Of a DNA stretch of 64,000 bases, positions 6,133 through 58,619 are shown piece after piece (the stretch's first letter is position 1; every line of letters starts with the position of its first letter). The notes beneath the pieces are model-generated. The model was not told the DNA's origin. It did not search any database and saw only the letters and a list, made by a program, of their open reading frames with translations. The position numbers and the translations under genes are program-made. Origin of the DNA: an uncultured Chloroflexia bacterium (GTDB lineage: Bacteria > Chloroflexota > Dehalococcoidia > Dehalococcoidales > RBG-16-60-22); NCBI GenBank assembly GCA_963739395.1, contig CAVUAE010000001.1:518056-582055 (forward strand), in the 5' to 3' direction.

Positions 6133-6789
6133 ATGACCATTATAGAAAATGTCCGACAAATACTCGCCGAGCTACCAGAGGGTGTAAAGCTCGTCGCCGC
6201 CGCTAAAACAAGAAGTCCGCAGGAAATTTTAGAAGCAGTTGAGGCAGGTATTAAGATTGTCGGGGAAAACTATGTGCAGGAAGCAGAGGAGGCTTACCGT
6301 GTCATCGGCAACAAAGTCGAGTGGCATTTCATCGGACACCTCCAGCGAAATAAGGTCAAAAAAGCCGTCGAGATTTTCGACATGATAGAGACGGTTGACT
6401 CCATAGATATAGCTCAAGAAATTGATAAAAGATGTCAGCGAATCGGTAAGGTAATGCCAGTGCTGGTGGAGATAAATAGCGCGTGGGAGGCGCAAAAGGC
6501 AGGGGTCAAGCCCGAGGACGTTCTAGAGCTAATTACGGAAATAGCAAATCTGAAGAATATCAAGGTGATGGGGCTAATGACCATGGGGACGGCGACAGGA
6601 AAACCAGAGGAATTGCGGGTAAATTTCCGCGATACAAAAAGGATTTTTGAGGAGTTAAGGAAAAAGTCACTTCCGAACGTAGAAATGAAATACCTTTCCA
6701 TGGGCATGACAGACTCTTATAAAATCGCTCTGGAAGAAGGCGCCAATATCGTCAGGATAGGCAGTAAGATATTTGGCGCTAGAGGTTAG
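6133..6789 (+). CDS. yggS: YggS/YlmE-family pyridoxal-phosphate homeostasis protein
   Basis: 218 aa. It shows typical YggS features: AAAKTRS (PLP lysine region), WHFIGHLQRNK and LSMGMTDSYKIALEEGANIVRIGSKIFG. Confidence 0.85.
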   Translation: MTIIENVRQILAELPEGVKLVAAAKTRSPQEILEAVEAGIKIVGENYVQEAEEAYRVIGNKVEWHFIGHLQRNKVKKAVEIFDMIETVDSIDIAQEIDKRCQRIGKVMPVLVEINSAWEAQKAGVKPEDVLELITEIANLKNIKVMGLMTMGTATGKPEELRVNFRDTKRIFEELRKKSLPNVEMKYLSMGMTDSYKIALEEGANIVRIGSKIFGARG

Positions 6790-6801
6790 CGTCCGCGGGG
6801 G
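6786..6801. repeat. left copy of a 16-bp direct repeat, TTAGCGTCCGCGGGGG
   Basis: Exact 16-mer also found at 7825..7840. This copy contains the yggS TAG stop at 6787-6789. Confidence 0.9.
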
Positions 6802-7824
6802 GTACTAAGGTAAAATGGGGTTATTGGGGGAAAGGGAATAATAATGAAGTGACAAAAAGAGAAATAAAATACGTTGTTTGACTATTGTCCCTTTTGTTAT
6901 TTATGTGTTAAAATCATTGTTACGTTATGAAAAATTATAATATTTGGGACATCATAACTACTATCGCTGCTATTATTGCAGTAGTGATGTCTCTATTAGC
7001 ATTTTTTCAAGCTAATAATGCCAATAACTTAGCTGCTGAGGCAAACAAAATAGCCATCAATTCAAATCAAATAGCCATCATTGCTAACCAAATATCTTCA
7101 AACGCAAGTAAATTAGCTAATGAAGCGAATAATATAGCTCTTAAAGCTAATCAATATTATCGTGAATCTTATGTTCCAATGATAAATGCTATCATTATTT
7201 CGGATTTTCACGAAGAAGAAAATATATGGACTAATACTGTAGAAATCAAGAATGTAGGACAACCACTAAACAATATCCGTTGTTTTTCGTATTCAATATT
7301 AGAAATATCCTGCGATAATACTTCGTCAAAGACCTATTTACGTTTGTTTAATTATTTTAGTAATATTGGGAATTATACAGGAAATGGCCAAGGCTTGCTA
7401 TATACTAATGGGCTGAAGAGTAATGAGTCCAAATATGTTAAAGTAGCTGACGATTTTTCTTCTACTGCATATTTTTCTGGAAATACACTTGTATATATTA
7501 GGAATATCATCCTTTTAAAAATATCTTATACCGATACTTTTGGTGAGTATTATGAAACATATCTGGAATCAGGAATTGATGGCAATTTTCGAGATACAGA
7601 CAAACTAGAAGCACAAAATTTATTAGACCAAGTATTGGAATATTATACAATATTTTTTAAATATGCTGTTCCTATTCCAGAAACAGGCTATTCAATAGAA
7701 ATCCCGGTACCTGTCTTAGTACAACCAGTTCTTGATTATTTAGATGGAACTAAATTGTGGAATTGGTATAAAACGGAAATATTAAAAAAATAGATTACTA
7801 CATTTTACTTACTGATAGTTGTGA
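6802..7824. mobile_element. AT-rich ~1-kb insertion (single cargo ORF, no recombinase) between the direct repeats
   Basis: Bounded by the 16-bp direct repeat. Sampled 60-nt lines inside give 22/60 and 16/60 G+C, versus 32/60 in the adjacent loader gene. Confidence 0.6.
6927..7793 (+). CDS. hypothetical membrane-anchored protein (cargo of the AT-rich insertion)
   Basis: 288 aa with an N-terminal TM helix (IITTIAAIIAVVMSLLAFF) and an Asn/Ala-rich repeat segment ANKIAINSNQIAIIANQISSNASKLANEANNIALKANQ. The ~200-aa C-terminal domain has no motif I recognise. There is no SD; TGTTAAAAT ends 12 nt upstream of the ATG. Confidence 0.55.
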   Translation: MKNYNIWDIITTIAAIIAVVMSLLAFFQANNANNLAAEANKIAINSNQIAIIANQISSNASKLANEANNIALKANQYYRESYVPMINAIIISDFHEEENIWTNTVEIKNVGQPLNNIRCFSYSILEISCDNTSSKTYLRLFNYFSNIGNYTGNGQGLLYTNGLKSNESKYVKVADDFSSTAYFSGNTLVYIRNIILLKISYTDTFGEYYETYLESGIDGNFRDTDKLEAQNLLDQVLEYYTIFFKYAVPIPETGYSIEIPVPVLVQPVLDYLDGTKLWNWYKTEILKK

Positions 7825-7840
7825 TTAGCGTCCGCGGGGG
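7825..7840. repeat. right copy of the 16-bp direct repeat, TTAGCGTCCGCGGGGG
   Basis: Identical to 6786..6801. It contains the stop (TTA = TAA on the minus strand) and the last codons (..PRGR) of the loader gene. Confidence 0.9.
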
Positions 7841-9240
7841 TTTTTGGGGTGGGGGGTATTACTCTTTTGTCTGGGTTTTCTTTCGTTACGAAAGTCCGGT
7901 GCAATAATAGCGAAGGTAACGCTGATATTGCGGTCAATCAGACGCGAACTAATGGAGCTATCTACCTCTTCTTTAATTTCGTCCAAAGTCAAGCGGGTGG
8001 TGATAACGGTGGGGAGGCGACTGTTATAACGGTAATTGATAAGCTGGTAGAGTTTCTCCTTCACCCATGGATTAGTGCTTTGCTCGCCGAAGTCATCTAA
8101 CACAAGAAGTGGCGCAGTTTTCACACTTTCGAAAAGCTGGTCGTAAGATATTTTACTCTCCGGATTAAAAGCAGACCGAAGGTGGTCGAGGAAATCAGGA
8201 ACGACGACGAAAAGAGCCGGCTTTCCCATTTCATAACGGTAGTTGACGATAGCGGAGGCGAGATGCGTTTTGCCGCAGCCGGTTTCGCCCAGAAAAACCA
8301 GCCAGCCCTCCGGATTTTTCGCGAAATCAAAAGCGAGACGATAGGCAGCGTCCATGTTATCCTGCTGCTCCATCGATAAATCGGTGCGGCGCTTATAGTT
8401 GATGAAGGTCATGTTTTTCTGCAATTCGAATTCCGGCGGCCAGGCATAGATAGAGGCAGCCGATTCTTCTTCAAGGACAAAAACACGAGATAAACGGGCA
8501 TCAGTGAGGCGCGTGCGCAAACGGTCGTCCAGCTCGTCGATAGGTATGGCAGTAACGATAACTGTAGGCAGGCTGGCGTTAAAGCGTGAGGTAAGCAGTT
8601 GGTCTAGTTTTTCTTTAGCCCAGGGAGTGCCGGACTGCACGCCGAGGTCATCTAAAGCGAGCAACGGAGCACTCTTGACCTGTTCAAAGAACTCACTATA
8701 AGACGTTTCACTTTCAGGATTAATCGATGTACGCAGGCGGTCGAGCAGGTCGGGTGTGGTGCTATAGAGAGCGGGCTGAACCTTATCGATTCGCTCATTA
8801 ACGATAGCGGCTGCCATGTGGGTTTTACCGCTGCCGCTGGGTCCGTTGATAACCAGCCACCCTTCTGGATTATCGGCGAAGGCATGGGCAGCTTGATAAG
8901 CCTGACTAAAACGCTCCTGGGTTTGCGGGTTGCTGCTCCTGCCTTCCGGAATGAGATTATCGAAGGTGAAACGAGTCAGCGAACCGATGTTTGAATATTG
9001 CTTTAGTCGGGATAATCGTTCTTTATCTTGTTTGGATTGAACGCATTTACAGGGAACGGTATGACTATAGTCCGGTTGACCCGAAGGCAAACGGGGATGC
9101 ACCTTACGCGCGCCTTTACATATAGGACAAACTGCATTCTGCGTCGGCGACTCGTCAGCGTCGGACCATGTGTCCGTATTTTCCTTTGAAGTATTTGTCT
9201 GGCCCTGTCGCTTTAGTATCTCTTTGATATGTTCCATCAC
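7825..9240 (-). CDS. helicase-loader-like protein with an N-terminal Cys4 zinc finger and two tandem DnaC/DnaI/IstB-type AAA+ modules
   Basis: 471 aa. The zinc finger is CPICKG...CKC. Module 1 has Walker A GPSGSGKT and Walker B LLALDDLG; module 2 has GETGCGKT and LLVLDDFG. The two modules align with 66/110 identical residues in my hand alignment. The gene lies downstream of dnaB and a DnaD-domain gene. Confidence 0.8.
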   Translation of the reverse strand: MMEHIKEILKRQGQTNTSKENTDTWSDADESPTQNAVCPICKGARKVHPRLPSGQPDYSHTVPCKCVQSKQDKERLSRLKQYSNIGSLTRFTFDNLIPEGRSSNPQTQERFSQAYQAAHAFADNPEGWLVINGPSGSGKTHMAAAIVNERIDKVQPALYSTTPDLLDRLRTSINPESETSYSEFFEQVKSAPLLALDDLGVQSGTPWAKEKLDQLLTSRFNASLPTVIVTAIPIDELDDRLRTRLTDARLSRVFVLEEESAASIYAWPPEFELQKNMTFINYKRRTDLSMEQQDNMDAAYRLAFDFAKNPEGWLVFLGETGCGKTHLASAIVNYRYEMGKPALFVVVPDFLDHLRSAFNPESKISYDQLFESVKTAPLLVLDDFGEQSTNPWVKEKLYQLINYRYNSRLPTVITTRLTLDEIKEEVDSSISSRLIDRNISVTFAIIAPDFRNERKPRQKSNTPHPKNPRGR

Positions 9241-26850: not shown

Positions 26851-27306
26851 GTGACCAAAATGATTACTATTCGAGAAGCTAAAGAAAAAGACATCCCTCG
26901 CCTGCTGGAGCTTTATCAACAGCTTTCTTTCAATCCGAGCGACTATAAAAAAGCGCCGCTGGAAGAATGCCGTCGCGTGTTCAAAAAGCAGTCCAAAATA
27001 CCGGGGTATAGTCTGTTAGTGGCGGAGGAAAACGGGGAGGTTATCGGCACGACGGTTCTGGCGATACTGCCAGGCATGGCGCACGGTACGAATCCCTTTG
27101 CTGTGATTGAATACGTAGTCGTGGATGAGAAAAAACGCAGCCAAGGTGTTGGAAAAAAGTTAATGGACTACTGCAAAGATGTAGCTAAAAACGCCGGCTG
27201 CTATAAAATAATGCTTACCAGCGATAAGCGGCGTAAACGGGCGCATAAGTTTTACCAGTCAGTGGGGTTCGCGGCGTCGGCGGAGGGGTTTAGGTTTTAC
27301 TTCTAG
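26851..27306 (+). CDS. GNAT-family N-acetyltransferase
   Basis: 151 aa with the motif VVDEKKRSQGVGKKLMDYCKDVAK. The start is either the GTG at 26851 or the ATG at 26860. Confidence 0.75.
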   Translation: MTKMITIREAKEKDIPRLLELYQQLSFNPSDYKKAPLEECRRVFKKQSKIPGYSLLVAEENGEVIGTTVLAILPGMAHGTNPFAVIEYVVVDEKKRSQGVGKKLMDYCKDVAKNAGCYKIMLTSDKRRKRAHKFYQSVGFAASAEGFRFYF

Positions 27307-27489
27307 TCCTGGTCCAGATATAGTTTCCAGTATCATGTTATATCTAAATTTGTCTTTTTTCAGTGAATCCCTGACTGCCTGATTGATGAGGTCCGATACC
27401 GAACTTGACTTGGCGATGGCTTTAAGCCGCAGGGCTTTATATAAATCAGGGTCCAGATAGACAGTAGTTCGTTTACTCGCTTTAGTCAT
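27259..27489 (-). CDS. ribbon-helix-helix (CopG/antitoxin-like) DNA-binding protein
   Basis: 76 aa. The N-terminus KRTTVYLDPDLYKALRLKAIAKSSSVSDLINQAVRDSL shows an RHH pattern. The 3' tail overlaps the convergent GNAT gene by 48 nt. No toxin partner was seen. Confidence 0.55.
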   Translation of the reverse strand: MTKASKRTTVYLDPDLYKALRLKAIAKSSSVSDLINQAVRDSLKKDKFRYNMILETISGPGLEVKPKPLRRRREPH

Positions 27490-27513
27490 AATACTATTCC
27501 CCCAAACAACAAC

Positions 27514-27542
27514 ATTATAGCATTATAACGTTATGACGTCAA
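27514..27542 (-). promoter_or_regulatory. sigma70-type promoter for the RHH gene
   Basis: Read on the minus strand: TTGACG, a 17-nt spacer, then TATAAT. A GGGGGA SD follows, before the ATG at 27489. Confidence 0.55.
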
Positions 27543-27612
27543 GATGTTTTGGGAGAGAAGTTCAGGTATTATTTCTAGGGGTGGCTTCTTTTTAAACTGT
27601 GTTACCGGTGGA

Positions 27613-28047
27613 TTAGTTATTGCTTTTTTCTATCGGGTTTGCCAGAAAGTAAGGACCTTCAACGTCTTCCGGCAGCGCATGGCCCATTATTTCCTCCATA
27701 TCAGAAGCACCAAGAAATCCGCCGCCTAATTTTACCGTATCTCCCACACGCGCTACTGCTTGGCCTTTATCATTGATAATCCACATTTCTTTACCTTCGA
27801 TTTTCAATGAATAACCGTATGGCCAGATTATCAAAGCATGCAAATCATTGTTTACGTTTATCCTTAAATAACCGGCATCATCCACCAACTTACCCGATAA
27901 TAGCGTCAGCATCAACTCCTTCTGGACTTCTTTCTGCACCGGGAAATACGGTTCAGGCTGCGATTTTTCTGTAGCTGCACTATTACAACCAAATACCAAA
28001 ACTGACAATATGAGGATGCTGAAAACGATTTCTATTTTATTTTTCAT
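27613..28047 (-). CDS. putative lipoprotein, function unknown
   Basis: 144 aa with a signal peptide and lipobox (LSVLVFGC-NSA). Confidence 0.65.
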   Translation of the reverse strand: MKNKIEIVFSILILSVLVFGCNSAATEKSQPEPYFPVQKEVQKELMLTLLSGKLVDDAGYLRINVNNDLHALIIWPYGYSLKIEGKEMWIINDKGQAVARVGDTVKLGGGFLGASDMEEIMGHALPEDVEGPYFLANPIEKSNN

Positions 28048-28054
28048 CGTACTA

Positions 28055-28084
28055 ATTATAACGTAGAAATCAAGAGGCAGATAG
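28055..28084 (-). promoter_or_regulatory. conserved 30-nt upstream box (copy 1), containing a TATAAT 7 nt from the ATG
   Basis: The plus strand ATTATAACGTAGAAATCAAGAGGCaGATAG matches 29274..29303 at 29/30 positions. On the minus strand it reads ...CCTCTTGATTTCTACGTTATAAT, then 7 nt, then ATG, with no SD. Confidence 0.55.
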
Positions 28085-28152
28085 GTTTGTAGCTTTAATT
28101 ATTTAAGTATACGGAGGGGTTTAGGTATTATTTCTAGCTTGGCTTCTTATGC

Positions 28153-28776
28153 CTATTTTAAAGATAAAGTAATCGATTTAAAAACTGGGTTTAACGTAAG
28201 ACCGTTTTTACTTCCGACACCAATTTTTATCTCCAGATTATCTGGCGGCGTGATTATCGAAGGAGATAATGCCAGTTCTATGAGAATATTTCCTTGACCC
28301 GTGCCTATGATTTTGTTACTATTCTCACTCCGTCCTATGGTTATTACGGTAGGATAATCCGTTTCCGCTTTTGTTTCCAATACCGTAACATATCGTTCCG
28401 GATCGTATTCGTCTTGAGGATAATCACTGGATATACTGGTGATTTGCCAGCCATCGGAGATATTAAAACTGACGCCTCCCCAATCTTCAGGGTCAACTTC
28501 AACCCAGCCAATAATCCTTACCTGCCGGTTTTTCTGCTCGTTTACATCTCCATAAACAAAAATCGTGCCTCTTACAAATGAATCCAGACCAATATCCTGT
28601 GCCGTGATGAAAAAACTCTGATAGTCGATAAGCTCCGCGTTTACGTTTTTGAAAGTATTGATACTGTTGTTATTACAGGCAAATACCAGCAAAACAGCCG
28701 TCAGCGATATCAGTATTGATAAATATTTAGTTATCTTACTGGTTTTTAACATTTTCTCCATTTTAACCAAGCTCAA
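28153..28776 (-). CDS. putative lipoprotein, function unknown
   Basis: 207 aa with a signal peptide and lipobox (LLVFAC-NNN). The exact start among the N-terminal Met codons is uncertain. Confidence 0.6.
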   Translation of the reverse strand: MSLVKMEKMLKTSKITKYLSILISLTAVLLVFACNNNSINTFKNVNAELIDYQSFFITAQDIGLDSFVRGTIFVYGDVNEQKNRQVRIIGWVEVDPEDWGGVSFNISDGWQITSISSDYPQDEYDPERYVTVLETKAETDYPTVITIGRSENSNKIIGTGQGNILIELALSPSIITPPDNLEIKIGVGSKNGLTLNPVFKSITLSLK

Positions 28777-28808
28777 TGCTGAACACTATAAATTCAGCTT
28801 TATTATTG

Positions 28809-29267
28809 TTATTTTAACTCAACCTGCTTAGTGTAGTCTAATGTTCTGTTTTCGAACGTTATATGTAGCTTTAAAGGATACATAATATTATTAAGGATTG
28901 CTATATAACCGGGTATATCACATGTTCCAATTTTACTTTCACCGGGCAACAGAGGATTTGAAAGATTAATATCAAAATCGGCATCAAATGTATATTGTTC
29001 TTCCGTGATTTTGCCTGAGGTATCTGTTGACCGGGTAGACGGTTCAAGAGTAGCTCTCAAATAAATAACCGGCTCCTGTCCCATATTCTTCAGCGTTATT
29101 TCAATTATGTGCGTTCCACCAGGGTTTATTTCTCCACCAGGACCAGGAGGAGTTCCAACCATATTTACGGACAAAACTTCAACCGGCTGCTGATTAGACT
29201 GGCAACCAACAATCTCCATCAGAATAAGTATTAAAAATAGATAACCAAATATTACTGCTTTTTTCAT
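28809..29267 (-). CDS. putative lipoprotein, function unknown
   Basis: The track ORF extends to 29312. I prefer the ATG at 29267 (MKKAVIFGYLFLILILMEIVGC-QSN), which gives a canonical lipoprotein signal peptide. Confidence 0.6.
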   Translation of the reverse strand: MKKAVIFGYLFLILILMEIVGCQSNQQPVEVLSVNMVGTPPGPGGEINPGGTHIIEITLKNMGQEPVIYLRATLEPSTRSTDTSGKITEEQYTFDADFDINLSNPLLPGESKIGTCDIPGYIAILNNIMYPLKLHITFENRTLDYTKQVELK

Positions 29268-29273
29268 CTTATT

Positions 29274-29303
29274 TATTATAACGTAGAAATCAAGAGGCGG
29301 ATA
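29274..29303 (-). promoter_or_regulatory. conserved 30-nt upstream box (copy 2)
   Basis: ATTATAACGTAGAAATCAAGAGGCgGATAG. On the minus strand, TATAAT lies 7 nt upstream of the ATG at 29267. Confidence 0.55.
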
Positions 29304-29329
29304 GTGACCCATAAATGTTATACTAGACT

Positions 29330-32310: not shown

Positions 32311-34026
32311 ATGTCTATCAAAATCCTCGATAAAGAAACCATCAATCAGATAGCCGCCGGCGAGGTCGTGGAAAGACCGGCGTCGGTAGTTAAAGAGCTG
32401 GTGGAAAACGCCCTGGACGCCGAGGCGAGTCAGATTGGGGTGGAGATAAGGGGCGGAGGCATTAGTCTGATTAAGGTCACAGACAACGGACTTGGCATTC
32501 CCTCGGACGAAGTCGAACTGGCTTTCGAGCGACACGCCACCAGTAAAATAAAAAGTCCGCAAGACCTCCAGAAGATAAACAGTCTGGGCTTTCGCGGCGA
32601 GGCACTGCCCAGTATCGCCGCCGTGGCGGATGTCGAGGTTGTCACTGCCGCCCAGGACGAGAAATCAGGTACCTACCTATCGCTGGAGGGTGGGACGGTC
32701 TTGAAAAAGGCTAGTCAGGCACGTACAAGAGGCACGACGGTTACCGTGAGGAACTTGTTCAAACGCGTCCCAGCCCGACTTAAATTTTTAAAGTCCCAAG
32801 CCACCGAGAGCGGGCACGTCGCTAACGTGGTCAGCCAATACGCCCTGGCGTACCCCGAGGTGGCGTTCAGCTTAAGCGCGGACGGCAAGGAAAGCCTTAA
32901 AACGTCGGGCAAGGGAAGTCTTCTGGACGCGATTATCGACGTCTACGGCGTCGCTACCGCCAGTAAAATGCTGTCGGTGGACAACTCACAGCAAAGCTGG
33001 AAGTCGGGGGAGGACACGCTGGACATTCACGTTACGGGCATGGTCGGGACGCCCGAACTGGCCAGAGCGGGACGCGACTTTTTAAGCTTCTTCGTCAATC
33101 GACGCTGGGTAAACAGTCGGACGCTCGCCTACGCCGTGGAAGAGGCTTACAGCGGACTCCTCATGACCGGCAAGCATCCGGTGGCGATAATCGACATCTC
33201 CCTGCCGACGGACGCCGTGGACGTCAATATTCATCCGGCGAAGAGTGAGGTGAAGTTCCGCGCCGAGGGAGAGGTCTTTAGAGCCGTCCAGAAAGCGGTG
33301 CGCCAAGCCCTCACAGCACAGATGCCGGTACCGAAAATCGAGGACGTCGTCGCGTCGTATAAAGCCATGCCGCCGCATCAACTCGACCAGTTATGGGGAA
33401 AAACTACGCTAAAATCGACTCCCTCAACAATGGAAGTCCAACCGACCCTGACTGCTTCCCTGCCGGTGTTAAGGGTGGTGGGACAAGTCATGAACAGCTA
33501 CATCGTAGCCGAGGGACCCGACGGTTTATACCTTATCGACCAGCATGCCGCGCACGAGCGGATACGCTACGACAAGGTACTTAAACAGCGGGAGCAAAAA
33601 AAGCCGGAGGTGCAGGGACTTTTAGAGCCAGCGACGCTTGAAGTGACGCCGCGACAGGACGCGATAATGCGGTCGTGCCTGGGACAGCTAACCGACTTCG
33701 GATTTAGTCTGGAGTCGTTTGGTGATAGAACCTATTTAGTAAGGACCGTGCCGGCGCTGGTGGCAGGAGATAACTGGACGGGGATGCTCAAGGAGCTGCT
33801 GGACGGCTTAGTCGGTGAGGAGCGGAGTAAATGGGACGAAAAAATCGTGGCGTCGCTAGCCTGTCACGGGGCGATTAAGGCGGGACAGGCTTTATCAGAT
33901 GAAGAAATGAGGACGCTGGTTCGACAACTGGAGCAGACGGCTAATCCCCACACCTGTCCCCATGGACGTCCCACCGTCATTAAGCTAAGCGCCATACAGC
34001 TGGAGCGGGAGTTCGGGCGGGAATAA
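32311..34026 (+). CDS. mutL: DNA mismatch repair protein MutL
   Basis: 571 aa. N-terminal GHKL ATPase motifs IKILDKETINQIAAGEVVERPASVVKELVENALDA and DNGLGI; C-terminal domain containing CPHGRP. Confidence 0.93.
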   Translation: MSIKILDKETINQIAAGEVVERPASVVKELVENALDAEASQIGVEIRGGGISLIKVTDNGLGIPSDEVELAFERHATSKIKSPQDLQKINSLGFRGEALPSIAAVADVEVVTAAQDEKSGTYLSLEGGTVLKKASQARTRGTTVTVRNLFKRVPARLKFLKSQATESGHVANVVSQYALAYPEVAFSLSADGKESLKTSGKGSLLDAIIDVYGVATASKMLSVDNSQQSWKSGEDTLDIHVTGMVGTPELARAGRDFLSFFVNRRWVNSRTLAYAVEEAYSGLLMTGKHPVAIIDISLPTDAVDVNIHPAKSEVKFRAEGEVFRAVQKAVRQALTAQMPVPKIEDVVASYKAMPPHQLDQLWGKTTLKSTPSTMEVQPTLTASLPVLRVVGQVMNSYIVAEGPDGLYLIDQHAAHERIRYDKVLKQREQKKPEVQGLLEPATLEVTPRQDAIMRSCLGQLTDFGFSLESFGDRTYLVRTVPALVAGDNWTGMLKELLDGLVGEERSKWDEKIVASLACHGAIKAGQALSDEEMRTLVRQLEQTANPHTCPHGRPTVIKLSAIQLEREFGRE

Positions 34027-34072
34027 ATATTAACAATAATGACGTAAAATTGTATAATAAAAAACAAAGTAG

Positions 34073-34969
34073 GTGTTTAAGATGGTTGTGGAAGTAGTAA
34101 CAAACAAAAAAATAAATATAAGCCATGAAAGAACATGTAATTGTCCCCCAAACCATATTAATTGTTTAACACCAAAAGAATGGATACGTTCCCAAGTTGG
34201 TATATGGGAATTCTCTTATGAAAAAAGAGATATAAGGGATAAAAGTATTCATCCGGCTGTCTTTCCAATAGCCTTACCAACACAGTGTATTAAATTGTTT
34301 ACACATGAAGGAGAATTAATATTAGATCCGTTTGCCGGCATAGGTACTACATTATTAGCCGCACAAGACCTTAATAGAAATGCTGTTGGTTTTGATTTAA
34401 AAGAAGAATATATTGAAGTAACTAAGTCTAGACTTGCACAAAGTAGACTATTAAATAATACACAGCAAATAGAAATCAAGGACGATGCACGTAATATTTC
34501 TAATTATTTAAGTGAAGAGACTATCGCATTAGTCGTGACATCACCACCATATTCAAGATTCTTAGATAAGCCTCGTTTAAACAAGAGTATGAGAGGCAAT
34601 TTAAGAAATAATAAGCATTACCTGACAGTCCAGCAATATTCTCAAGACCCTAAAGACATCGGTACTCTTGAACCAATTACATTTAGCAAAGAATTAGCTC
34701 AAATCTTTAAAGGCATATTACCTCTTTTAAGGCCAAAGGCTCATTGCGTCATAGACATTAATGACCTTTGGTGGGAAAATAAAAGGATACCTACGCATGT
34801 TTATATCGTAGAAGAAATGCTTAAGGTAGGGTATGATTTAAGAAATATCATGATTTGGGACAGGAGGAATTTAGTAAATAGGGTAGGTATTTTCGGTTGG
34901 CCTAATAACTTTATTAAGCTTGGAACCACGTTTGAATATTTATTAGACTTCTGGAAACCCGCCTCTTAA
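34073..34969 (+). CDS. amino (N4-cytosine or N6-adenine) DNA methyltransferase, motif order I then IV
   Basis: The AdoMet motif LDPFAGIGTTLLAA precedes the catalytic motif VVTSPPY. The likely start is the ATG at 34082, with AGGTG 9 nt upstream. It is AT-rich (18/60 G+C in a sampled line versus 34/60 in mutL). It is convergent with and overlaps the REase gene. Confidence 0.8.
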   Translation: MFKMVVEVVTNKKINISHERTCNCPPNHINCLTPKEWIRSQVGIWEFSYEKRDIRDKSIHPAVFPIALPTQCIKLFTHEGELILDPFAGIGTTLLAAQDLNRNAVGFDLKEEYIEVTKSRLAQSRLLNNTQQIEIKDDARNISNYLSEETIALVVTSPPYSRFLDKPRLNKSMRGNLRNNKHYLTVQQYSQDPKDIGTLEPITFSKELAQIFKGILPLLRPKAHCVIDINDLWWENKRIPTHVYIVEEMLKVGYDLRNIMIWDRRNLVNRVGIFGWPNNFIKLGTTFEYLLDFWKPAS

Positions 34970-35673
34970 ATTAACCTCTCTCTTTTTGAAAAGCAAAGGC
35001 TCAGTTTATCCGGATTTATTCTAAAGCCAGTCCCATGATCATGAGTAGAACCATCCTGATATTGACCAATTCTTATATCTACACAAATAACACCATCTTT
35101 TGTGTTATTTTTAAATCCGTTAAAGTTAAAACCACTCAATAGCCAAGCTTCATTAAACCAAAACTCTTCATTCTTACCAGCACCTTTACAATCAGCTTGT
35201 ACATATATAACATGTTTAAGCTTCTTTTCAAACACTTTTCTTAGTGTTTCTTCATCCCAATAACCAAGTTGTTCACTATCTGATGATACAAGCACAATTT
35301 TATCTTGGGTAATAATTATTTTAAATCCTTTTAAACCTCTTAAGGTATTGTATTCCGTTGCTTTAGCAGTTGTATGAAGGATTTTTTTACCGTTACTTTT
35401 CTCCGTAATATACCCATATTTTTTTAAAAGTATCGAATTCGCTTTTTCAGGCTGGGGAGCTTTAGTAAATAGAGTCAACATACTACCACTACCCTTTCTT
35501 GCTGATTTTAATTCGGCAAAAGTAGTGTTAGCGATATCTATATTATTTTCTTTAATATCTAATAGATCCTCTAGAGTTTTCCCTATGCCTGTATTACCTG
35601 TCCTATGTGTTTTGATATATCCTCTTGCTTTGATTAACTTCATTTTTTCAATGAATTCGTCAAGGTTTTTCAT
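34966..35673 (-). CDS. MvaI/BcnI-family type IIP restriction endonuclease
   Basis: 235 aa. IKARGYIKTHRTGNTGIGKTLEDLLDIKENN...FAELKSARKGSGSMLTLFTKAP and C-terminal STHDHGTGFRI match my recollection of the BcnI/MvaI pattern (KGY.., ENN, ElK..R, LTLF.K.P, HDRG..lRI). It is tail-to-tail with the MTase. Confidence 0.75.
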   Translation of the reverse strand: MKNLDEFIEKMKLIKARGYIKTHRTGNTGIGKTLEDLLDIKENNIDIANTTFAELKSARKGSGSMLTLFTKAPQPEKANSILLKKYGYITEKSNGKKILHTTAKATEYNTLRGLKGFKIIITQDKIVLVSSDSEQLGYWDEETLRKVFEKKLKHVIYVQADCKGAGKNEEFWFNEAWLLSGFNFNGFKNNTKDGVICVDIRIGQYQDGSTHDHGTGFRINPDKLSLCFSKRERLI

Positions 35674-35712
35674 ACATATTTTCCTTCGTTCCTTAGTATA
35701 TCATATAAAAAT

Positions 35713-36135
35713 TTATTCTTTCTCCTCCCCTTCCAATGTTTGATGCACCTCGTCCCACCTGACCATGCCGTCTTCGATAAGCTGGCGGATTTTCTTTTGA
35801 TGCGGCTTGAGTTTAGAATTCCCAGTCTTAATCTCTAGGATAACGATTTCCCGGGGGTCACCCTGCGCCAGACCAGGAAAAATTATCATGTCGATAGGAC
35901 TGCCGATAAAACGCACTTCCGTGGGGTCGTAAGCAAAGTCGGGGAAAAAGGGCACCATCTGCTCGGTGAACTTGCCGCCGAGGGAAGCTCTACTCCTCGA
36001 AATAGCATCCTGCCGCGCCTCCTCTATCTCCTCCCGAAAGCGTCTTTCGTAGACCGACCGGATAATGAAGGCAATGAAAATAATAACAATAATAGCAACG
36101 ACTACAGTGATGGCGATAATAGCGGCGGTGTCCAT
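35713..36135 (-). CDS. membrane-anchored endonuclease related to archaeal Holliday-junction resolvases (COG4741-like)
   Basis: It has an N-terminal TM helix, then GGKFTEQMVPFFPDFAYDPTEVRFIGSPIDMIIFPG...ILEIKTGNSKL (a D...E-x-K nuclease core). The start is set at the ATG at 36135, with AGGAGG 6 nt upstream; the track starts at the GTG at 36150. Confidence 0.65.
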   Translation of the reverse strand: MDTAAIIAITVVVAIIVIIFIAFIIRSVYERRFREEIEEARQDAISRSRASLGGKFTEQMVPFFPDFAYDPTEVRFIGSPIDMIIFPGLAQGDPREIVILEIKTGNSKLKPHQKKIRQLIEDGMVRWDEVHQTLEGEEKE

Positions 36136-38078: not shown

Positions 38079-38690
38079 ATGGAAGTAATCTACACCGCAG
38101 CATTAGCCATCGCCGCCTTTTTCCTGGGAGCCGTTCCTTTTTCGGTGATTATCGGACGTAAATTACTGAAAAAGGACATTACTAATTACGGGGATGGCAA
38201 TCCCGGATCAATTAATGTTTTCCGAGCGGGCGGCAAGACGGCAGGTTTCCTGGCGATAATCCTGGATGTAGCTAAAGGCGTGCCTTTTGTCTTATTATCT
38301 CACCTGCTCAACCTCCCGCTTCTTGCTCCTGTCATCGTCGGGACATGCGCCGTGCTGGGACATGCTTTCTCGCCATTCTTGCACTGGCGCGGTGGCAAAG
38401 CAATAGCCATAACCTTCGGGGTTATGCTGGGACTATTACCCCAATATGATATCTTACTGACGTTTATCATTTTTATGGTAACCTGTGCCCTGCTCATTAA
38501 AAACGATGCCTGGGGCGTAGTTATCAGCGCGGCAGGCACGCTGGCATACCTCACCACTTATAACGGCTATTCCTGGCAGTCACTATTGATGGTGTGTCTG
38601 CTGGCGATACTCATTATCAAACATTACGAGGATTTACGCAGGCTACCTAGTCTACGCGGCAGACTGCTCCACTGGCTGCAAGTAAGATAA
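38079..38690 (+). CDS. plsY: glycerol-3-phosphate acyltransferase PlsY family (paralog 1)
   Basis: 203 aa with GDGNPGSINVFRAGGK, DVAKG and GHAFSPFLHWRGGKAIA, which correspond to PlsY motifs 1-3. Confidence 0.8.
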   Translation: MEVIYTAALAIAAFFLGAVPFSVIIGRKLLKKDITNYGDGNPGSINVFRAGGKTAGFLAIILDVAKGVPFVLLSHLLNLPLLAPVIVGTCAVLGHAFSPFLHWRGGKAIAITFGVMLGLLPQYDILLTFIIFMVTCALLIKNDAWGVVISAAGTLAYLTTYNGYSWQSLLMVCLLAILIIKHYEDLRRLPSLRGRLLHWLQVR

Positions 38691-51363: not shown

Positions 51364-52212
51364 ATGGATTTTAAAGGTAAGACAGCCGTAGTTACAGGCT
51401 CTTCCGGCGGCATCGGTAAAGCGATTGCTATCGCCCTGGCTAAAGAAGGGGCGGCTATCGTCCTGGCGTCCCGTAACGTGCCTAACATGGAAGCCGTGAA
51501 AAAGGAGATTGAAGCCCTCGGTCGCAAAGTAGTCGTCATTCAGTGCGACACTTCTAAAGACGAGAGCGTAGTTGACATGCGGGATAAGGCGTTGAAGGCA
51601 TTCGGCAATATCGATATCTTAATCAATAATGCCGCCGTCGGTATCCGCGGTTCGCTGGAGGACGTAAGTCTGGACGACTGGAGATATATCATCAACACGA
51701 ATATCATGGGCTATATCCGTAACGTGCACGCTTTCCTGCCACATTTTATACAACGCAAGAGCGGCTATATCGTCAACGTTTCTTCCATCCAGGCGTTGGC
51801 TTACGGCGCCGAGATGCAAAATACCCCCTATATCACCACTAAAGCAGGCATCATCGGTTTTACGGACTGTCTTTCCTCTTACCTGCGTCCCAAAGGCATT
51901 AAGGTCTCCTGCCTGATTCCGGGCGGCGTCATCACCAATATCGCGGAAAACTCGCGGTTCGTCGGCTCGGAAGAACGAAAGAAAGAACTGCGTGATAGGG
52001 ACCTGCAATTCACTAAGTCCCCGATGTTCCTCACCGCGGAGCAATGCGCGCAAGGGCTAATCGAGGGAATGAAGAAAGAGGAGTATTTTATTCTTACGCC
52101 ACCTAATATGGCGGAGATGCTTAAGATGCAGGGGCGAGACATCGCCATGCTTAATGCTTATGTGGCTAATCCGCCACCACCAAGATTCCCTCCCCCACCC
52201 CAACCAAAATAG
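51364..52212 (+). CDS. short-chain dehydrogenase/reductase (SDR) ending in a proline-rich tail
   Basis: 282 aa with TGSSGGIGKAIA (TGxxxGxG), NNAA, and the catalytic Y-x3-K (YITTK). The C-terminus is ANPPPPRFPPPPQPK. Confidence 0.85.
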   Translation: MDFKGKTAVVTGSSGGIGKAIAIALAKEGAAIVLASRNVPNMEAVKKEIEALGRKVVVIQCDTSKDESVVDMRDKALKAFGNIDILINNAAVGIRGSLEDVSLDDWRYIINTNIMGYIRNVHAFLPHFIQRKSGYIVNVSSIQALAYGAEMQNTPYITTKAGIIGFTDCLSSYLRPKGIKVSCLIPGGVITNIAENSRFVGSEERKKELRDRDLQFTKSPMFLTAEQCAQGLIEGMKKEEYFILTPPNMAEMLKMQGRDIAMLNAYVANPPPPRFPPPPQPK

Positions 52213-52261
52213 ATATCGTCGTTCTTGTCAGCTACGCCGGGATAGTTTATACTCCAGATAC

Positions 52262-52358
52262 GGGAGCGGATGAGTCCCGGTGGGCTTCGCGGACTTCAAA
52301 TCCGTTGGGGTCCTTCTTTGAAGGATTCGGTGGGTTCGACTCCCATGCGCTCCCGCCA
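52262..52358 (+). tRNA. selC: tRNA-Sec (anticodon TCA), with encoded CCA
   Basis: GGGAGCGGATGAGTCCCGGTGGGCTTCGCGGACTTCAAATCCGTTGGGGTCCTTCTTTGAAGGATTCGGTGGGTTCGACTCCCATGCGCTCCCGCCA. The anticodon loop CTTCAAA, a long variable arm, a 6-bp D stem, a GGTTCGACTCC T arm and a G-CCA end closely parallel E. coli selC as I recall it. selA and selB are nearby. Confidence 0.92.
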
Positions 52359-52367
52359 GAATGTATT
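52350..52367. repeat. attL-like direct repeat spanning the tRNA-Sec 3' end
   Basis: CTCCCGCCAGAATGTATT. It is repeated at 53485..53502 as CTCCCGCGAGAATGTATT (17/18). Confidence 0.85.
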
Positions 52368-52434
52368 CTGTCTTTATATAAGATGGAGACAAAGAAGTCG
52401 ATTTTACGAAAAGACTCAGAGGTTTCATACTAAT

Positions 52435-53361
52435 ATGGAAAAAAGGAAGATACTGGTAATACTTGATGACGAGTTAAGTATTCTAAAAGCATATAAACGC
52501 TTTATTAACCTTTTGCCAGAAGTAAAACACATAGAATTAGCCTTTTTTTCCACTGACTCGGATGCAGTAAAATTCGTCAAAGAAAATGCCGAATACATAA
52601 TCGGTTTCATTCAAGATATGAGTAGACCATCAGTTGGTCAGACAGGCTTTGCTGGAATACGTTTTTTAAATGAAGTAATTAACACACTGACACCTTGGGC
52701 TAAGACTGTCATAGCTTCAGGGCAAGTATATGCAGAAGAAATCATGGAATTATTGTACTCAGCGAAATATAAAATTCGGTTTCTTGCTAAACCTTTCGAT
52801 GTGAGTCATTTCCGTATTAACATACAATGGTTATTAGAATCACAGGTTGATACTGAAGATTTTCTACTTAACGAAGCCCAATTGAAGGATTCTAAAATCA
52901 TACAGTTGATAAAAACACCTTGGGAAGACGTATATAGATATATCGCTGAAAATCCTTCATTTCTTCACTCTATGGATCCAAGGTTGTTCGAGGAACTAGT
53001 TGCAGACATCTTCAAGCGTTTCGGCTGGGATGTGGAACTGACTGCTCATACCCATGATGGTGGATATGATATTATAGCTATCAAGCAAAATGATCCTACA
53101 TGCCAACGCATACTCATTGAAGCTAAACGATATGCACCAAATCGAGTAGTTGGTGTCGAGATTGTTCGTTCAATATACGGACTTAGGTCTCTTCACGCAG
53201 CAAGCCAAGTTGTTCTAGCAACAAGCTCTTATATATCTGATGTGGCAAAAAAAGAATTCCTTAGAGTAATACCTTGGGAACTGGACTTTATTGAACGGGA
53301 TAGGATTTTAGATTGGTGCAGGCAATATGGTGGAGTGAGTCTAGATGGGTCTTTAAAATGA
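52435..53361 (+). CDS. fusion of a response-regulator receiver (REC) domain with an Mrr-type PD-(D/E)xK restriction endonuclease domain
   Basis: REC features are VILDDE (acidic pair), IIGFIQDMSRP (phospho-acceptor Asp position), VIASG and FLAKPFD (Lys-Pro). Mrr_cat features are FEELVADIFKRFGW...GGYDIIAI...ILIEAKRY. The start is set at the ATG at 52435; the track ORF from 52270 overlaps the tRNA. Confidence 0.7.
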   Translation: MEKRKILVILDDELSILKAYKRFINLLPEVKHIELAFFSTDSDAVKFVKENAEYIIGFIQDMSRPSVGQTGFAGIRFLNEVINTLTPWAKTVIASGQVYAEEIMELLYSAKYKIRFLAKPFDVSHFRINIQWLLESQVDTEDFLLNEAQLKDSKIIQLIKTPWEDVYRYIAENPSFLHSMDPRLFEELVADIFKRFGWDVELTAHTHDGGYDIIAIKQNDPTCQRILIEAKRYAPNRVVGVEIVRSIYGLRSLHAASQVVLATSSYISDVAKKEFLRVIPWELDFIERDRILDWCRQYGGVSLDGSLK

Positions 53362-53484
53362 TTACACTGTTTCATGTATGATATTGAGAATAGAAACAGG
53401 AACATTGTTTGGGCGAATATACACAGTGTCTTAATTGACAATGATGACAACTACTATTTTCAGTAATTCTAAGATTTATCTATA

Positions 53485-53502
53485 CTCCCGCGAGAATGTA
53501 TT
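53485..53502. repeat. attR-like direct repeat
   Basis: CTCCCGCGAGAATGTATT, matching 52350..52367 at 17/18 positions. Confidence 0.85.
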
Positions 53503-53564
53503 ATCTCCTTGAGAATTATTCTCAGGTGTGTAATAAAACCAATAGCTATTTCTTCTAGATAGCT

Positions 53565-54209
53565 CTACAGCCTGTCTTTGATGTTTTTGCGTTTGACAAC
53601 GTGTTTCCAGCTGCCGCCTTGTCGCCGCATTTCTACCAGGCGCGGGATATACCGGAGCAGAGGCAGCATGGTGAGTACCAGTGTATAGACGATGAATTCC
53701 CAGCTGTGATTGATGAACCAGCCGATAAACCCGAAACTGAAAAAGGCAATGCTATAAGCGATGGTCGGGGTGCGGAGAATCAACAGTAGCAAGAGGAAAA
53801 CGCCGAGGTAGATGGGAACACCCCACGGCATGAAAAACATCAGGATGCCGATGCAACATGCCCCGCCTTTACCGCCGTGGAACTTTAAGAAGACGGGGAA
53901 GTTATGTCCCAGGACAACGAAAAACCCCGCTAGATATTGCCAGAGGTACGGCGTCCCAAAGTAATAATCCATCCCTACCAAGTATTTTGCTACGGCGATA
54001 CCGGCGGCGCCTTTGCCGATGTCCACCAGCAGGGTGACCATGCCGTACCAGAAGCCAACCTTATAAAAGACGTTCATGGCGCCGGCATTACGGCTGCCGA
54101 CATCGCGGATATCCACGCCCTTGCCGAAGCGGGCGACAAGATAGGCCGTAGGGAAAGAGCCTATCAGGTAGGCGATGACCAGAGCGACAACGATAAAAAA
54201 AATATGCAA
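53565..54209 (-). CDS. plsY: glycerol-3-phosphate acyltransferase PlsY family (paralog 2)
   Basis: 214 aa with GSFPTAYLV, GSRNAGAMNVF, DIGKG and GHNFPVFLKFHGGKGGA motifs. Confidence 0.8.
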   Translation of the reverse strand: MHIFFIVVALVIAYLIGSFPTAYLVARFGKGVDIRDVGSRNAGAMNVFYKVGFWYGMVTLLVDIGKGAAGIAVAKYLVGMDYYFGTPYLWQYLAGFFVVLGHNFPVFLKFHGGKGGACCIGILMFFMPWGVPIYLGVFLLLLLILRTPTIAYSIAFFSFGFIGWFINHSWEFIVYTLVLTMLPLLRYIPRLVEMRRQGGSWKHVVKRKNIKDRL

Positions 54210-55332: not shown

Positions 55333-55869
55333 ATGTGCTTTTCTAAAATAAAGGAGTTTTTCATCAGAAAAGAGGAACCTGTACCTACACCTCAAATTCA
55401 ACCCACAGAACTACCTTATCCAGAAGAACCAAAAGATACCAATAAAACAATAGATAGTATAAACGTCGCCGCATTAGTTAATAATTGGCTAACCAAGTAC
55501 CACGTTCCAGCGCAATACCGGAATTACTGGCAAAACTTTCACATCATCATCTCTACAACTTACGATGCCCCGGCAGCTACCTCCTCACAGAAAGATGAAA
55601 TGTACCTAAGGCCGGAATGGGCAAATGAAGGGGTACTATCCCACGAACTCGCCCATGAAAGTTATTCGCTGCTTAATTGCTTTAAGAAAGTCACGTTCAA
55701 GTGTAAGTATAATAAGTACCTGACCTCTGACCCATTAATAGTTTTACTACATTCCAAGAATACTTATATGAATACTAATATAGTTGAAGCTCATGCGGAA
55801 ATATATCGTTATATCGGGGACCATATGCCGACAGAGTTATATCAATATTATCCAAAATTATTAGTGTGA
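55333..55869 (+). CDS. hypothetical protein with an HExxH motif (possible small zinc metallopeptidase)
   Basis: 178 aa with SHELAHE and, downstream, EAHAE. It is AT-rich, and I recognise no family. Confidence 0.45.
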   Translation: MCFSKIKEFFIRKEEPVPTPQIQPTELPYPEEPKDTNKTIDSINVAALVNNWLTKYHVPAQYRNYWQNFHIIISTTYDAPAATSSQKDEMYLRPEWANEGVLSHELAHESYSLLNCFKKVTFKCKYNKYLTSDPLIVLLHSKNTYMNTNIVEAHAEIYRYIGDHMPTELYQYYPKLLV

Positions 55870-58103: not shown

Positions 58104-58619
58104 TTAACGTTTCACAGGCGTCACTGCCTGTGACACAAATAACCATTTATAGTTTACCGGCTGCTTAACTATTCCCGCTTTTACAGGATTAAATATAACG
58201 TAATTCATTATGTCGAAGAAGTCATTTTCATTCCTGATAATTCGGTCATAGTTTTCATCAATCCAAATACTGCCTTTAACATGTAATACTCTTTGTATTT
58301 CATGAGCCGAGTAGGATTTAATACTATGCATTATCTGAGCAAGGCTGTAATAAACTCCTCTAGACTGTTCTAGCGGTAACAATACTATATGAACGTGCGT
58401 TTTCATTACAACGCAGGCATACAATTTATATTTTTTATCGATGTGATACTTAATAGCCGCTAAAACAATATCTTTAGCCGGTGGAGTTAGTTCATATCCT
58501 ATCGCTACATTAAAAGTGATAAAATAAGCACTCCCGGGGTTCTCCCAGTGTGGCAGATTCCTTTTGTATATTCGGAACTCTTTAACTGGTTTTAACCTAG
58601 AGCCTGATTTCAATATCAT
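58104..58619 (-). CDS. IS200-like Y1 (HUH) transposase of the REP-associated (RAYT) type
   Basis: 171 aa with YKRNLPHWENPGSAYFITF, the HUH motif THVHIVLL, and C-terminal NYVIFNPVKAGIV (catalytic Tyr region). It is AT-rich and flanked by inverted hairpins. Confidence 0.75.
   Translation of the reverse strand: MILKSGSRLKPVKEFRIYKRNLPHWENPGSAYFITFNVAIGYELTPPAKDIVLAAIKYHIDKKYKLYACVVMKTHVHIVLLPLEQSRGVYYSLAQIMHSIKSYSAHEIQRVLHVKGSIWIDENYDRIIRNENDFFDIMNYVIFNPVKAGIVKQPVNYKWLFVSQAVTPVKR
58112..58133. repeat. hairpin flanking the RAYT gene (3' side, overlapping its last codons)
   Basis: TCACAGGC-gtcact-GCCTGTGA, an 8-bp stem. Confidence 0.8.

Follow-up and report, generated by a model that had tools for sequence, protein, structure and literature searches.

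Horizontal transfer has placed a single-gene islet between selC, the gene for selenocysteine tRNA (tRNA-Sec), and the convergent gene plsY in one uncultured lineage of the Dehalococcoidales. The islet lies in a 64-kb stretch of contig CAVUAE010000001.1 (assembly GCA_963739395.1), the whole of which is referred to here as the window, and its interior occupies positions 52368..53484 of the forward strand (1117 nt). This DNA is foreign in composition and is bounded by a non-chance direct repeat that includes the 3′ end of the tRNA. Its only gene encodes a fusion of a receiver domain (REC) with a nuclease domain of the Mrr type (REC-Mrr), and it contains no mobility gene. We consider it somewhat probable that the islet arose by site-specific insertion at the 3′ end of selC, through a recombinase that was either lost or acted in trans, because of taxonomic precedent, the anchoring of the repeat on a tRNA 3′ end and repeat boundaries at two other selC loci that are like those left by integrases.

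The islet and its boundaries at the end of selC

The target gene was located at 52262..52358 (+ strand) with ARAGORN, which predicted an intact tRNA-Sec with the anticodon TCA and an encoded CCA and found no other tRNA in the window, and Rfam family RF01852 matches it over 52262-52354 with 73.3 bits (E 1.9e-14). The acceptor stem ends at 52354 and is followed by the discriminator G52355 and by the CCA at 52356-52358, and a promoter scan placed a promoter-like TTGTCA-17-TATACT before the gene, at 52225-52253. The left, attL-like direct repeat, CTCCCGCCAGAATGTATT (52350..52367, + strand), was identified by repeat search and is made up of the five last nucleotides of the acceptor stem, the discriminator G, the CCA and nine nucleotides past selC, GAATGTATT. 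The right, attR-like repeat, CTCCCGCGAGAATGTATT (53485..53502, + strand), is identical at 17 of the 18 positions, the sole mismatch changing CCA to CGA. The 18-bp core is thus written as CTCCCGC(C/G)AGAATGTATT, with the islet-side flanks ...TTTATCTATA and CTGTCTTTATAT..., and it can be extended, with mismatches, to only 22/26. The start of the islet thus falls inside the CCA of tRNA-Sec or immediately behind it, and of the distal repeat only 9 nt are tRNA sequence. When up to three mismatches are allowed the 18-mer matches the 64-kb window at these two copies only, and none of 1000 dinucleotide shuffles reached 17/18 (mode 13, maximum 16) when any 18-nt window across the tRNA end was compared with the next 5 kb downstream.

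The composition of the interior is equally distinct, with 36.3% G+C vs a window mean of 47.0% (z = −2.4, lowest 2.8% of equal-sized windows), and the G+C content at third codon positions (GC3) is 0.29 for the islet gene vs 0.60 for the upstream short-chain dehydrogenase (SDR) gene and 0.69 for plsY. A two-boundary likelihood segmentation by G+C placed the left change point at 52360, which is within the left repeat, and the right change point at 53588, which is 86 nt beyond the right repeat because the 62-nt spacer between that repeat and the plsY stop codon (53503..53564) is also AT-rich. This spacer contains an imperfect palindrome centered near 53517, with inverted-repeat arms at 53499-53516 and 53518-53535, and presumably represents the original selC-plsY intergenic DNA; the spacers of relatives are not alignable with it. 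Within the islet, non-coding DNA is limited to 67 nt before and 123 nt after the single intact gene, and neither a pseudogene fragment nor a leftover open reading frame (ORF) is present.

That this DNA is an insertion is evident from the selC-plsY slot in relatives, here five genome loci that were found through PlsY (71–85% identity). In two of them (L004, PlsY 77%, and L003, 82%) the CCA of the tRNA lies 5 nt from the plsY stop codon, which represents an empty site. The gap is 455 nt in L002 (PlsY 85%), with one small ORF that we take, by look alone, to encode a Dabb-type barrel protein, and 253 nt in L006 (PlsY 71%), with a small membrane ORF; no long repeats of note were found in the selC slot of these two. 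The fifth locus (L005) has no tRNA-Sec near plsY. In addition, contigs of related strains from runs X4-X6 span the genes for the SDR, PlsY and USP with 88–95% identity but have zero depth over 52372-53577, and the islet is present at low depth in run X1, a freshwater sediment metagenome that is probably the source sample; all of these data are assembled contigs of low depth, from which presence can be read but absence cannot. The empty sites in L003 and L004, the other cargo in L002 and L006 and the absence from X4-X6 together lead to the conclusion that the islet is a lineage-specific insertion in a slot that varies among relatives.

Run X1 also contains a 386-nt Logan contig in which a tRNA-Sec with another variable arm is joined to the first 300 nt of the islet. 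It has 11 changes at 52311-52325, where its arm is like that of the relatives, and is otherwise identical to the islet locus. It comes either from a second strain with the same islet or from a chimera formed via the 33-nt tRNA end that is common to relatives.

An initial annotation of the window had described a 17/18 repeat of the tRNA-Sec end around an AT-rich interior that holds only a REC-Mrr fusion gene and no mobility gene, and had proposed a comparison of the selC locus in related genomes. The positions and sequences of the repeat are exact and a chance match is not supported, the foreign composition, the identity of the single gene (the Mrr half by its Pfam match, the receiver half by fold) and the lack of mobility genes were all borne out, and the comparison revealed both empty sites and unrelated small genes, as expected of a genuine insertion next to selC. 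Its statement that the 3′ end of the tRNA had been regenerated is overstated, as no more than the last nine nucleotides of the tRNA lie in the repeat and the tRNA would be intact under any mechanism.

It is very improbable that the 18-mer is a chance or functional coincidence, such as a regulatory or terminator motif, and that the gene came by homologous replacement of a variable slot. Such an origin would be in keeping with a slot that has different small genes in every relative and with the lack of long repeats in L002 and L006, and across the window a 17/18 repeat with copies less than 6 kb apart is no great rarity (∼0.3 expected by our own estimate). However, the match that is anchored on the tRNA was not reached in the shuffles, both copies of the repeat are situated at composition boundaries, and when the direct repeats of the window (at least 15 nt with at most one mismatch, copies 200–6000 nt apart) are ranked by length, five of the top seven flank low-GC inserts.

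Origin of the islet

Precedent is found in the same bacterial class. In Dehalococcoides mccartyi, islands at ssrA are each enclosed by 20-bp copies of the 3′ end of that gene (McMurdie et al., 2011, PMC3146451), and a serine-recombinase integration module is present in 16 of the 31 islands and absent from the other 15, which the authors read as cis-mobilizable elements or fixed remnants (PMC3146451). The selC islet is like these islands in that it directly adjoins a small structured RNA gene at the 3′ end, has a short direct repeat of that end (20 bp for ssrA, 18 bp here) and carries accessory or defense cargo, and about half of the ssrA islands are also without a recombinase. It differs from them in its target, selC, in that half of the repeat lies beyond the gene, and in being one gene of 1.1 kb rather than a multi-kb island in a tandem array; moreover, no DsiB-type serine recombinase module was found at selC in any locus examined.

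By the route that we favor, circular donor DNA would have carried an 18-bp core matching the end of selC plus the next nine nucleotides, and recombination between this attP and the chromosomal attB would have produced one copy of the core at either side of the insert, in direct orientation, while keeping the tRNA intact. The recombinase would have acted in trans, or been encoded by an adjoining module that has since been deleted, and what is seen today would be an integration-module-less element, similar to a cis-mobilizable element (CIME) and probably unable to move by itself. All of the mechanisms considered here are compatible with the single C/G mismatch; on the favored route it may stem from an attP core that copied the target imperfectly, if strands were exchanged 3′ of the mismatch, or from one later substitution in the unselected right copy. 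CIMEs are known from integrative elements of Streptococcus thermophilus. The concept is cited for the ssrA islands (PMC3146451), and like CIMEs the selC islet lies between att-like repeats and lacks genes for recombination or transfer, such that a related integrative element could in principle mobilize it. Unlike the situation with CIMEs, no cognate element for the selC site was found among the loci searched, and its mobilization is conjecture.

Evidence that selC is a recurrent target came from metagenomes. The 27 nt at the 3′ end of tRNA-Sec are widely conserved, and a scan yielded at least 120 metagenomic selC loci, each of which was searched for repeats anchored on the tRNA end. Clear partial copies of tRNA-Sec were found downstream of the gene at two loci among the matches listed. 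The first (L102) is from a close relative (SDR 82% and SelB 73% identity) and has an exact 36–38-nt copy, extending from the T arm through CCA plus GATA, at 172–210 nt downstream of tRNA-Sec, with an insert that contains only a 45-codon ORF of a hydrophobic, membrane type. The second (L011) has a diverged copy of ∼67 nt, from the anticodon arm to the CCA, 1177 nt downstream (about 1150–1230), and its 1.2-kb insert (39% G+C) has three small ORFs and is situated directly before selB. Neither insert contains a long ORF fit for a recombinase. Three sublocations for tRNA-targeting integrases were reportedly described by Williams in 2002, and the three starts of the repeats, at the anticodon arm (L011), the T arm (L102) and the 3′ end (selC islet), resemble these sublocations. 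It is mainly because of this resemblance that a site-specific origin is favored. Short copies of CTCCCGCCA also occur downstream of selC at two other loci (a 10-mer at +817 in L084 and a 9-mer at +433 in L127); they were rejected as att scars, as controls taken upstream and on the reverse strand contain the 9-mer at least as often as the downstream DNA.

Several results weigh against a site-specific recombinase. An integrase-bearing island with this core was found at none of 125 selC loci (five from genomes and at least 120 from metagenomes, among the matches listed), and the viral collection yielded no integrase-bearing element with the core. What the latter contains is an exact 20-nt match, TACTCCCGCGAGAATGTATT, equal to the right repeat plus the two preceding bases, in one phage sequence that is represented four times (L007-L010, IMG/VR contigs from one sample). 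This match lies inside a 133-residue ORF that adjoins phage lysis and terminase genes and, by our own estimate, is at about chance frequency, so that it was rejected as an attP. The sequence GAATGTATT follows the CCA in no relative examined, so that the attB half of the model stays putative; the tRNA half of the repeat is single-copy in all relatives, and the GAATGTATT half is present in none because these genomes are too diverged (71–85% PlsY identity). Neither an excision joint nor a circle was seen in X1 and X4-X6, where the data are low-depth assembled contigs only. Scans of ∼45 ORFs of the window against Pfam (E cut-offs 0.01 to 1e-5) revealed no recombinase family, and one ORF, at 58104-58619, had no Pfam match at E 1e-5 or better. 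As evidence, composition by itself is weak, since low-GC patches occur at five places in the window. The proposal of the initial annotation that this is the footprint of site-specific integration into a tRNA gene is partly supported, namely with regard to the insertion, the repeat and the composition, and an origin from an integrase stays putative, as no integrase-bearing element with the core was found among the genome, metagenomic and viral loci listed.

The window itself provides a further point on the same side, since it contains at least one further recombinase-less islet, and perhaps two others, with unrelated repeats. The clear case, which had also been pointed out in the initial annotation (at 6786-7840) and has the same repeat-bounded, single-gene layout, is an islet at 6786-7842 with 30% G+C (interior G+C 0.30) that encodes a 288-residue protein without a family match. 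It is flanked by an exact 16-mer, TTAGCGTCCGCGGGGG, at 6786-6801 and 7825-7840. The left copy supplies the stop codon of yggS. The right copy belongs natively to the 3′ end of the convergent neighbor, a gene for a 471-residue double AAA+ protein similar to helicase loaders, and this copy is homologous in L138; in both L137 and L138 other, different genes begin 1 nt after yggS. At 27281-29304 one RHH gene and three genes for lipoprotein-like proteins form a low-GC array of small genes, in which a 19–26-nt sequence that includes the last codons and the stop codon of a GNAT gene occurs three times (27281, 27560 and 28112), the third copy looking like a hybrid of the first two, together with two copies of a 30-nt leader (28055 and 29275). 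It may be the result of serial insertions or a tandem cassette array. Directly after mutL, at 34025-36093 (33% G+C), there is a gene pair for an N4/N6 methyltransferase and an endonuclease of the MvaI/BcnI family, with an AT-rich 15/16 repeat at its edges (34025-34040 and 36078-36093) whose left copy overlaps the mutL stop codon, although this repeat may be due to chance. No shared terminal sequence or inverted repeat with 13 or more matched nucleotides was found among the ends of the islets. A common transposase with defined ends is unlikely, given that these ends share nothing, and integron cassettes were rejected on reading the sequence at the boundaries, where there is neither an attC-like structure nor a GTTRRRY core. 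With several islets that have unrelated repeats, site-specific insertion requires several specificities or independent losses, and the recurrence of islets fits a general process, whether trans-acting or recombinase-independent, at least as well as several losses of an integrase.

One such process is insertion with target duplication that is independent of any recombinase, in which a staggered break at the selC-plsY junction would be filled in so as to duplicate 18 bp, with no att site or integrase ever having been involved. Insertions of restriction genes with long target duplications are known that have no mobility gene and repeats that often overlap the 3′ ends of neighboring genes, and their mechanism is unknown (Furuta et al., 2010, PMC2853133); the class is reported for type I–IV restriction genes, including type IV, with the proviso that the intraspecific screen in that study required both R and M genes. 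Like these insertions (Nobusato et al., 2000; Furuta et al., 2010, PMC2853133), the selC islet has restriction-type cargo, no mobility gene, repeats overlapping neighboring 3′ ends and a G+C content below that of the host. Within the same window, the MvaI/BcnI pair with its edge repeat and the islet at 6786-7842, where one repeat copy is the native end of a neighboring gene, conform to the same pattern, and since the repeats differ in sequence and length and the ends share nothing, one general mechanism fits them all. On the other hand, the published class is defined by duplications of more than 30 bp vs 18 bp at selC, where in addition the target is the end of a tRNA gene and the full 18-mer was not seen in single copy at an empty site (the relatives being diverged), and the mechanism has never been shown by experiment. 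The islet at 6786-7842, furthermore, does not carry a restriction gene, the repeats begin in the T arm in L102 and in the anticodon arm in L011, in the manner of tRNA-targeting integrases, and the recombinase-less islands of the sister genus Dehalococcoides stand in arrays with recombinase-bearing ones. We regard target duplication as possible although not probable, and assign it this much weight because the cargo is of a restriction type and because the window contains at least one more islet that has no recombinase and whose repeat is unrelated. If a same-species empty site were to contain CCA-GAATGTATT-ATCTCCTTGAG once, the 18-mer would be the target sequence, which would fit both this mechanism and site-specific insertion.

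A broader proposal, which seems unlikely to us, is that the selC islet is one case of an undescribed process throughout the lineage of the Dehalococcoidales, whereby minimal AT-rich cassettes, often with one gene for defense or the cell surface, are inserted at the 3′ ends of core genes with a short target duplication, by machinery that is host-encoded or trans-acting and lacks the usual att specificity. The candidate cases are selC, the junction of yggS and the helicase-loader gene and possibly the GNAT gene and mutL. The duplicated target measures 16 and 18 bp in the two clear cases, and such machinery would be suggested by the lack of a recombinase in cis and by cassette ends that share nothing.

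Decay in place presents a different picture, in which the islet would be the last remnant, after deletions, of a larger island at selC that had an integrase and further cargo. The selC gene is a textbook site for islands, and the selC pathogenicity islands of Enterobacteriaceae carry P4-type integrases. The islet resembles these islands in that it is foreign in composition, lies at the same tRNA gene and has a direct repeat of the 3′ end of that gene, and it is unlike them in that they are tens of kb in size with a tyrosine integrase next to selC, whereas here there is 1.1 kb, no integrase and a host in a distant phylum. Decay also explains part of the integration-module-less islands of Dehalococcoides, and the one mismatch in the repeat points to some age. 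However, it is quite unlikely as the origin of an islet that is so compact, with 67 nt and 123 nt around one intact gene and no fragments, and in which the two repeats are preserved almost without change; a single gene in an equally tidy layout is seen at other sites too, and random deletion would rarely give that.

The receiver-nuclease fusion

The REC-Mrr gene (52435..53361, + strand, with its ATG at 52435, a start that the initial annotation had not given) encodes 308 residues, and its assignment is based on Pfam, PADLOC and fold. The C-terminal part is readily recognized, as Pfam Mrr_cat (PF04471) matches residues 177–295 with 74.8 bits (cut-off 21) and the PADLOC models for mREase_IV (type IV methyl-directed restriction) match the same part. 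The N-terminal 135 residues do not reach the threshold of Pfam Response_reg, and they align to a solved receiver domain (PDB 2rjn, E 0.02). An AlphaFold2 model built with 38 homologues (mean pLDDT 85) predicts a five-unit beta-alpha domain, a disordered linker at 141–159 and an alpha/beta nuclease domain. With Foldseek, the first of these domains matches the receiver domains of 3jte, Spo0F and DctD (TM 0.78–0.87), and the second matches the nuclease domains of AspBHI and MspJI. In the alignment of the 38 homologues, conservation is at least 90% at D12, at K119 and at D61, which is the position of the phospho-acceptor, and D208, D212 and K231 of the PD-(D/E)xK motif (DGGYD...EAK) are invariant in the family. 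Both halves of the protein thus look functional, as judged from the conserved residues and the predicted model.

The fusion has a PD-(D/E)xK nuclease domain in common with Mrr, MspJI and AspBHI, which are type IV modification-dependent enzymes. In contrast to these, a receiver domain takes the place of the N-terminal modification reader (Mrr_N or SRA-like), and no DNA-binding domain is recognizable. REC-Mrr is probably a stand-alone defense nuclease whose activity would be gated via the receiver domain. A receiver fused directly to an Mrr-type nuclease suggests DNA cleavage that is switched by phosphorylation, which has not been characterized so far.

About 58 full-length relatives of REC-Mrr were found, the closest with 56% identity, and the few with a named organism are from unrelated phyla (Thermoanaerobaculia, Longimicrobium). 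All four of the homologue contexts that were examined lie among defense or mobile genes, namely those for a TIR protein, a DUF4062-TPR protein and a TraG coupling protein in one, HsdR and a RepB primase with an HTH_17 protein in another, an AAA_15/21 ATPase in the third and AbiJ and DUF433 in the fourth, and in none of the four is there a single-gene islet beside a tRNA. Searches of sequenced plasmids, phages and viral contigs yielded matches to the nuclease domain only and no full-length relative. Look-ups of exact proteins gave no record identical to REC-Mrr or PlsY and, for the SDR, only one 2.1-kb contig that ends inside the tRNA.

Flanking genes and significance for the Dehalococcoidia

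The islet is surrounded by core genes in the order hypE - hycI - SDR - selC - [islet] - plsY(−) - USP(−) - unknown - selB(−). The left flanking gene encodes the SDR, which has a proline-rich tail (51364..52212, + strand; Pfam adh_short, 177.7 bits), and is kept upstream of selC in L002 (87% identity) and in L006 and L102 (82%). The right flanking gene, plsY, encodes a glycerol-3-phosphate acyltransferase (53565..54209, − strand, convergent with selC; Pfam G3P_acyltransf, 133 bits) and is syntenic with selC in L002, L003, L004 and L006. The window as a whole is core genome of a Chloroflexi bacterium of the Dehalococcoidales type and includes rplI-dnaB, plsX, nusA-infB-truB, pnp, dapAB, hypBFCDE-hycI, selA, selB and mnmA. 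It contains two plsY paralogues that are ∼15 kb apart (38079-38690 and 53565-54209), and in L003 and L004 two plsY copies are arranged in tandem directly after selC. Between the USP gene and selB there is an ORF of 178 residues (55333-55869, 38% G+C) that has no Pfam, NCBIfam or PADLOC match and for which no flanking repeat was found; L002 and L004 have other genes between plsY and selB.

Recombinase-less, repeat-bounded islets at the ends of small-RNA genes were already known in the Dehalococcoidia, and what is new here is the selC site for this lineage and the unusually small cargo. Thus, besides that of ssrA, the end of a second small-RNA gene, selC, accumulates islets without a recombinase in this class, the members of which are environmentally important and have small, streamlined genomes with few recognizable mobile elements. 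Single defense genes can become fixed in such genomes with almost no extra DNA. The pattern that recurs across the genome is of more interest than the single case at selC, and if one mechanism were indeed to lie behind the recurring layout, it would explain how these organisms gain accessory genes without integrases that are carried along with them.

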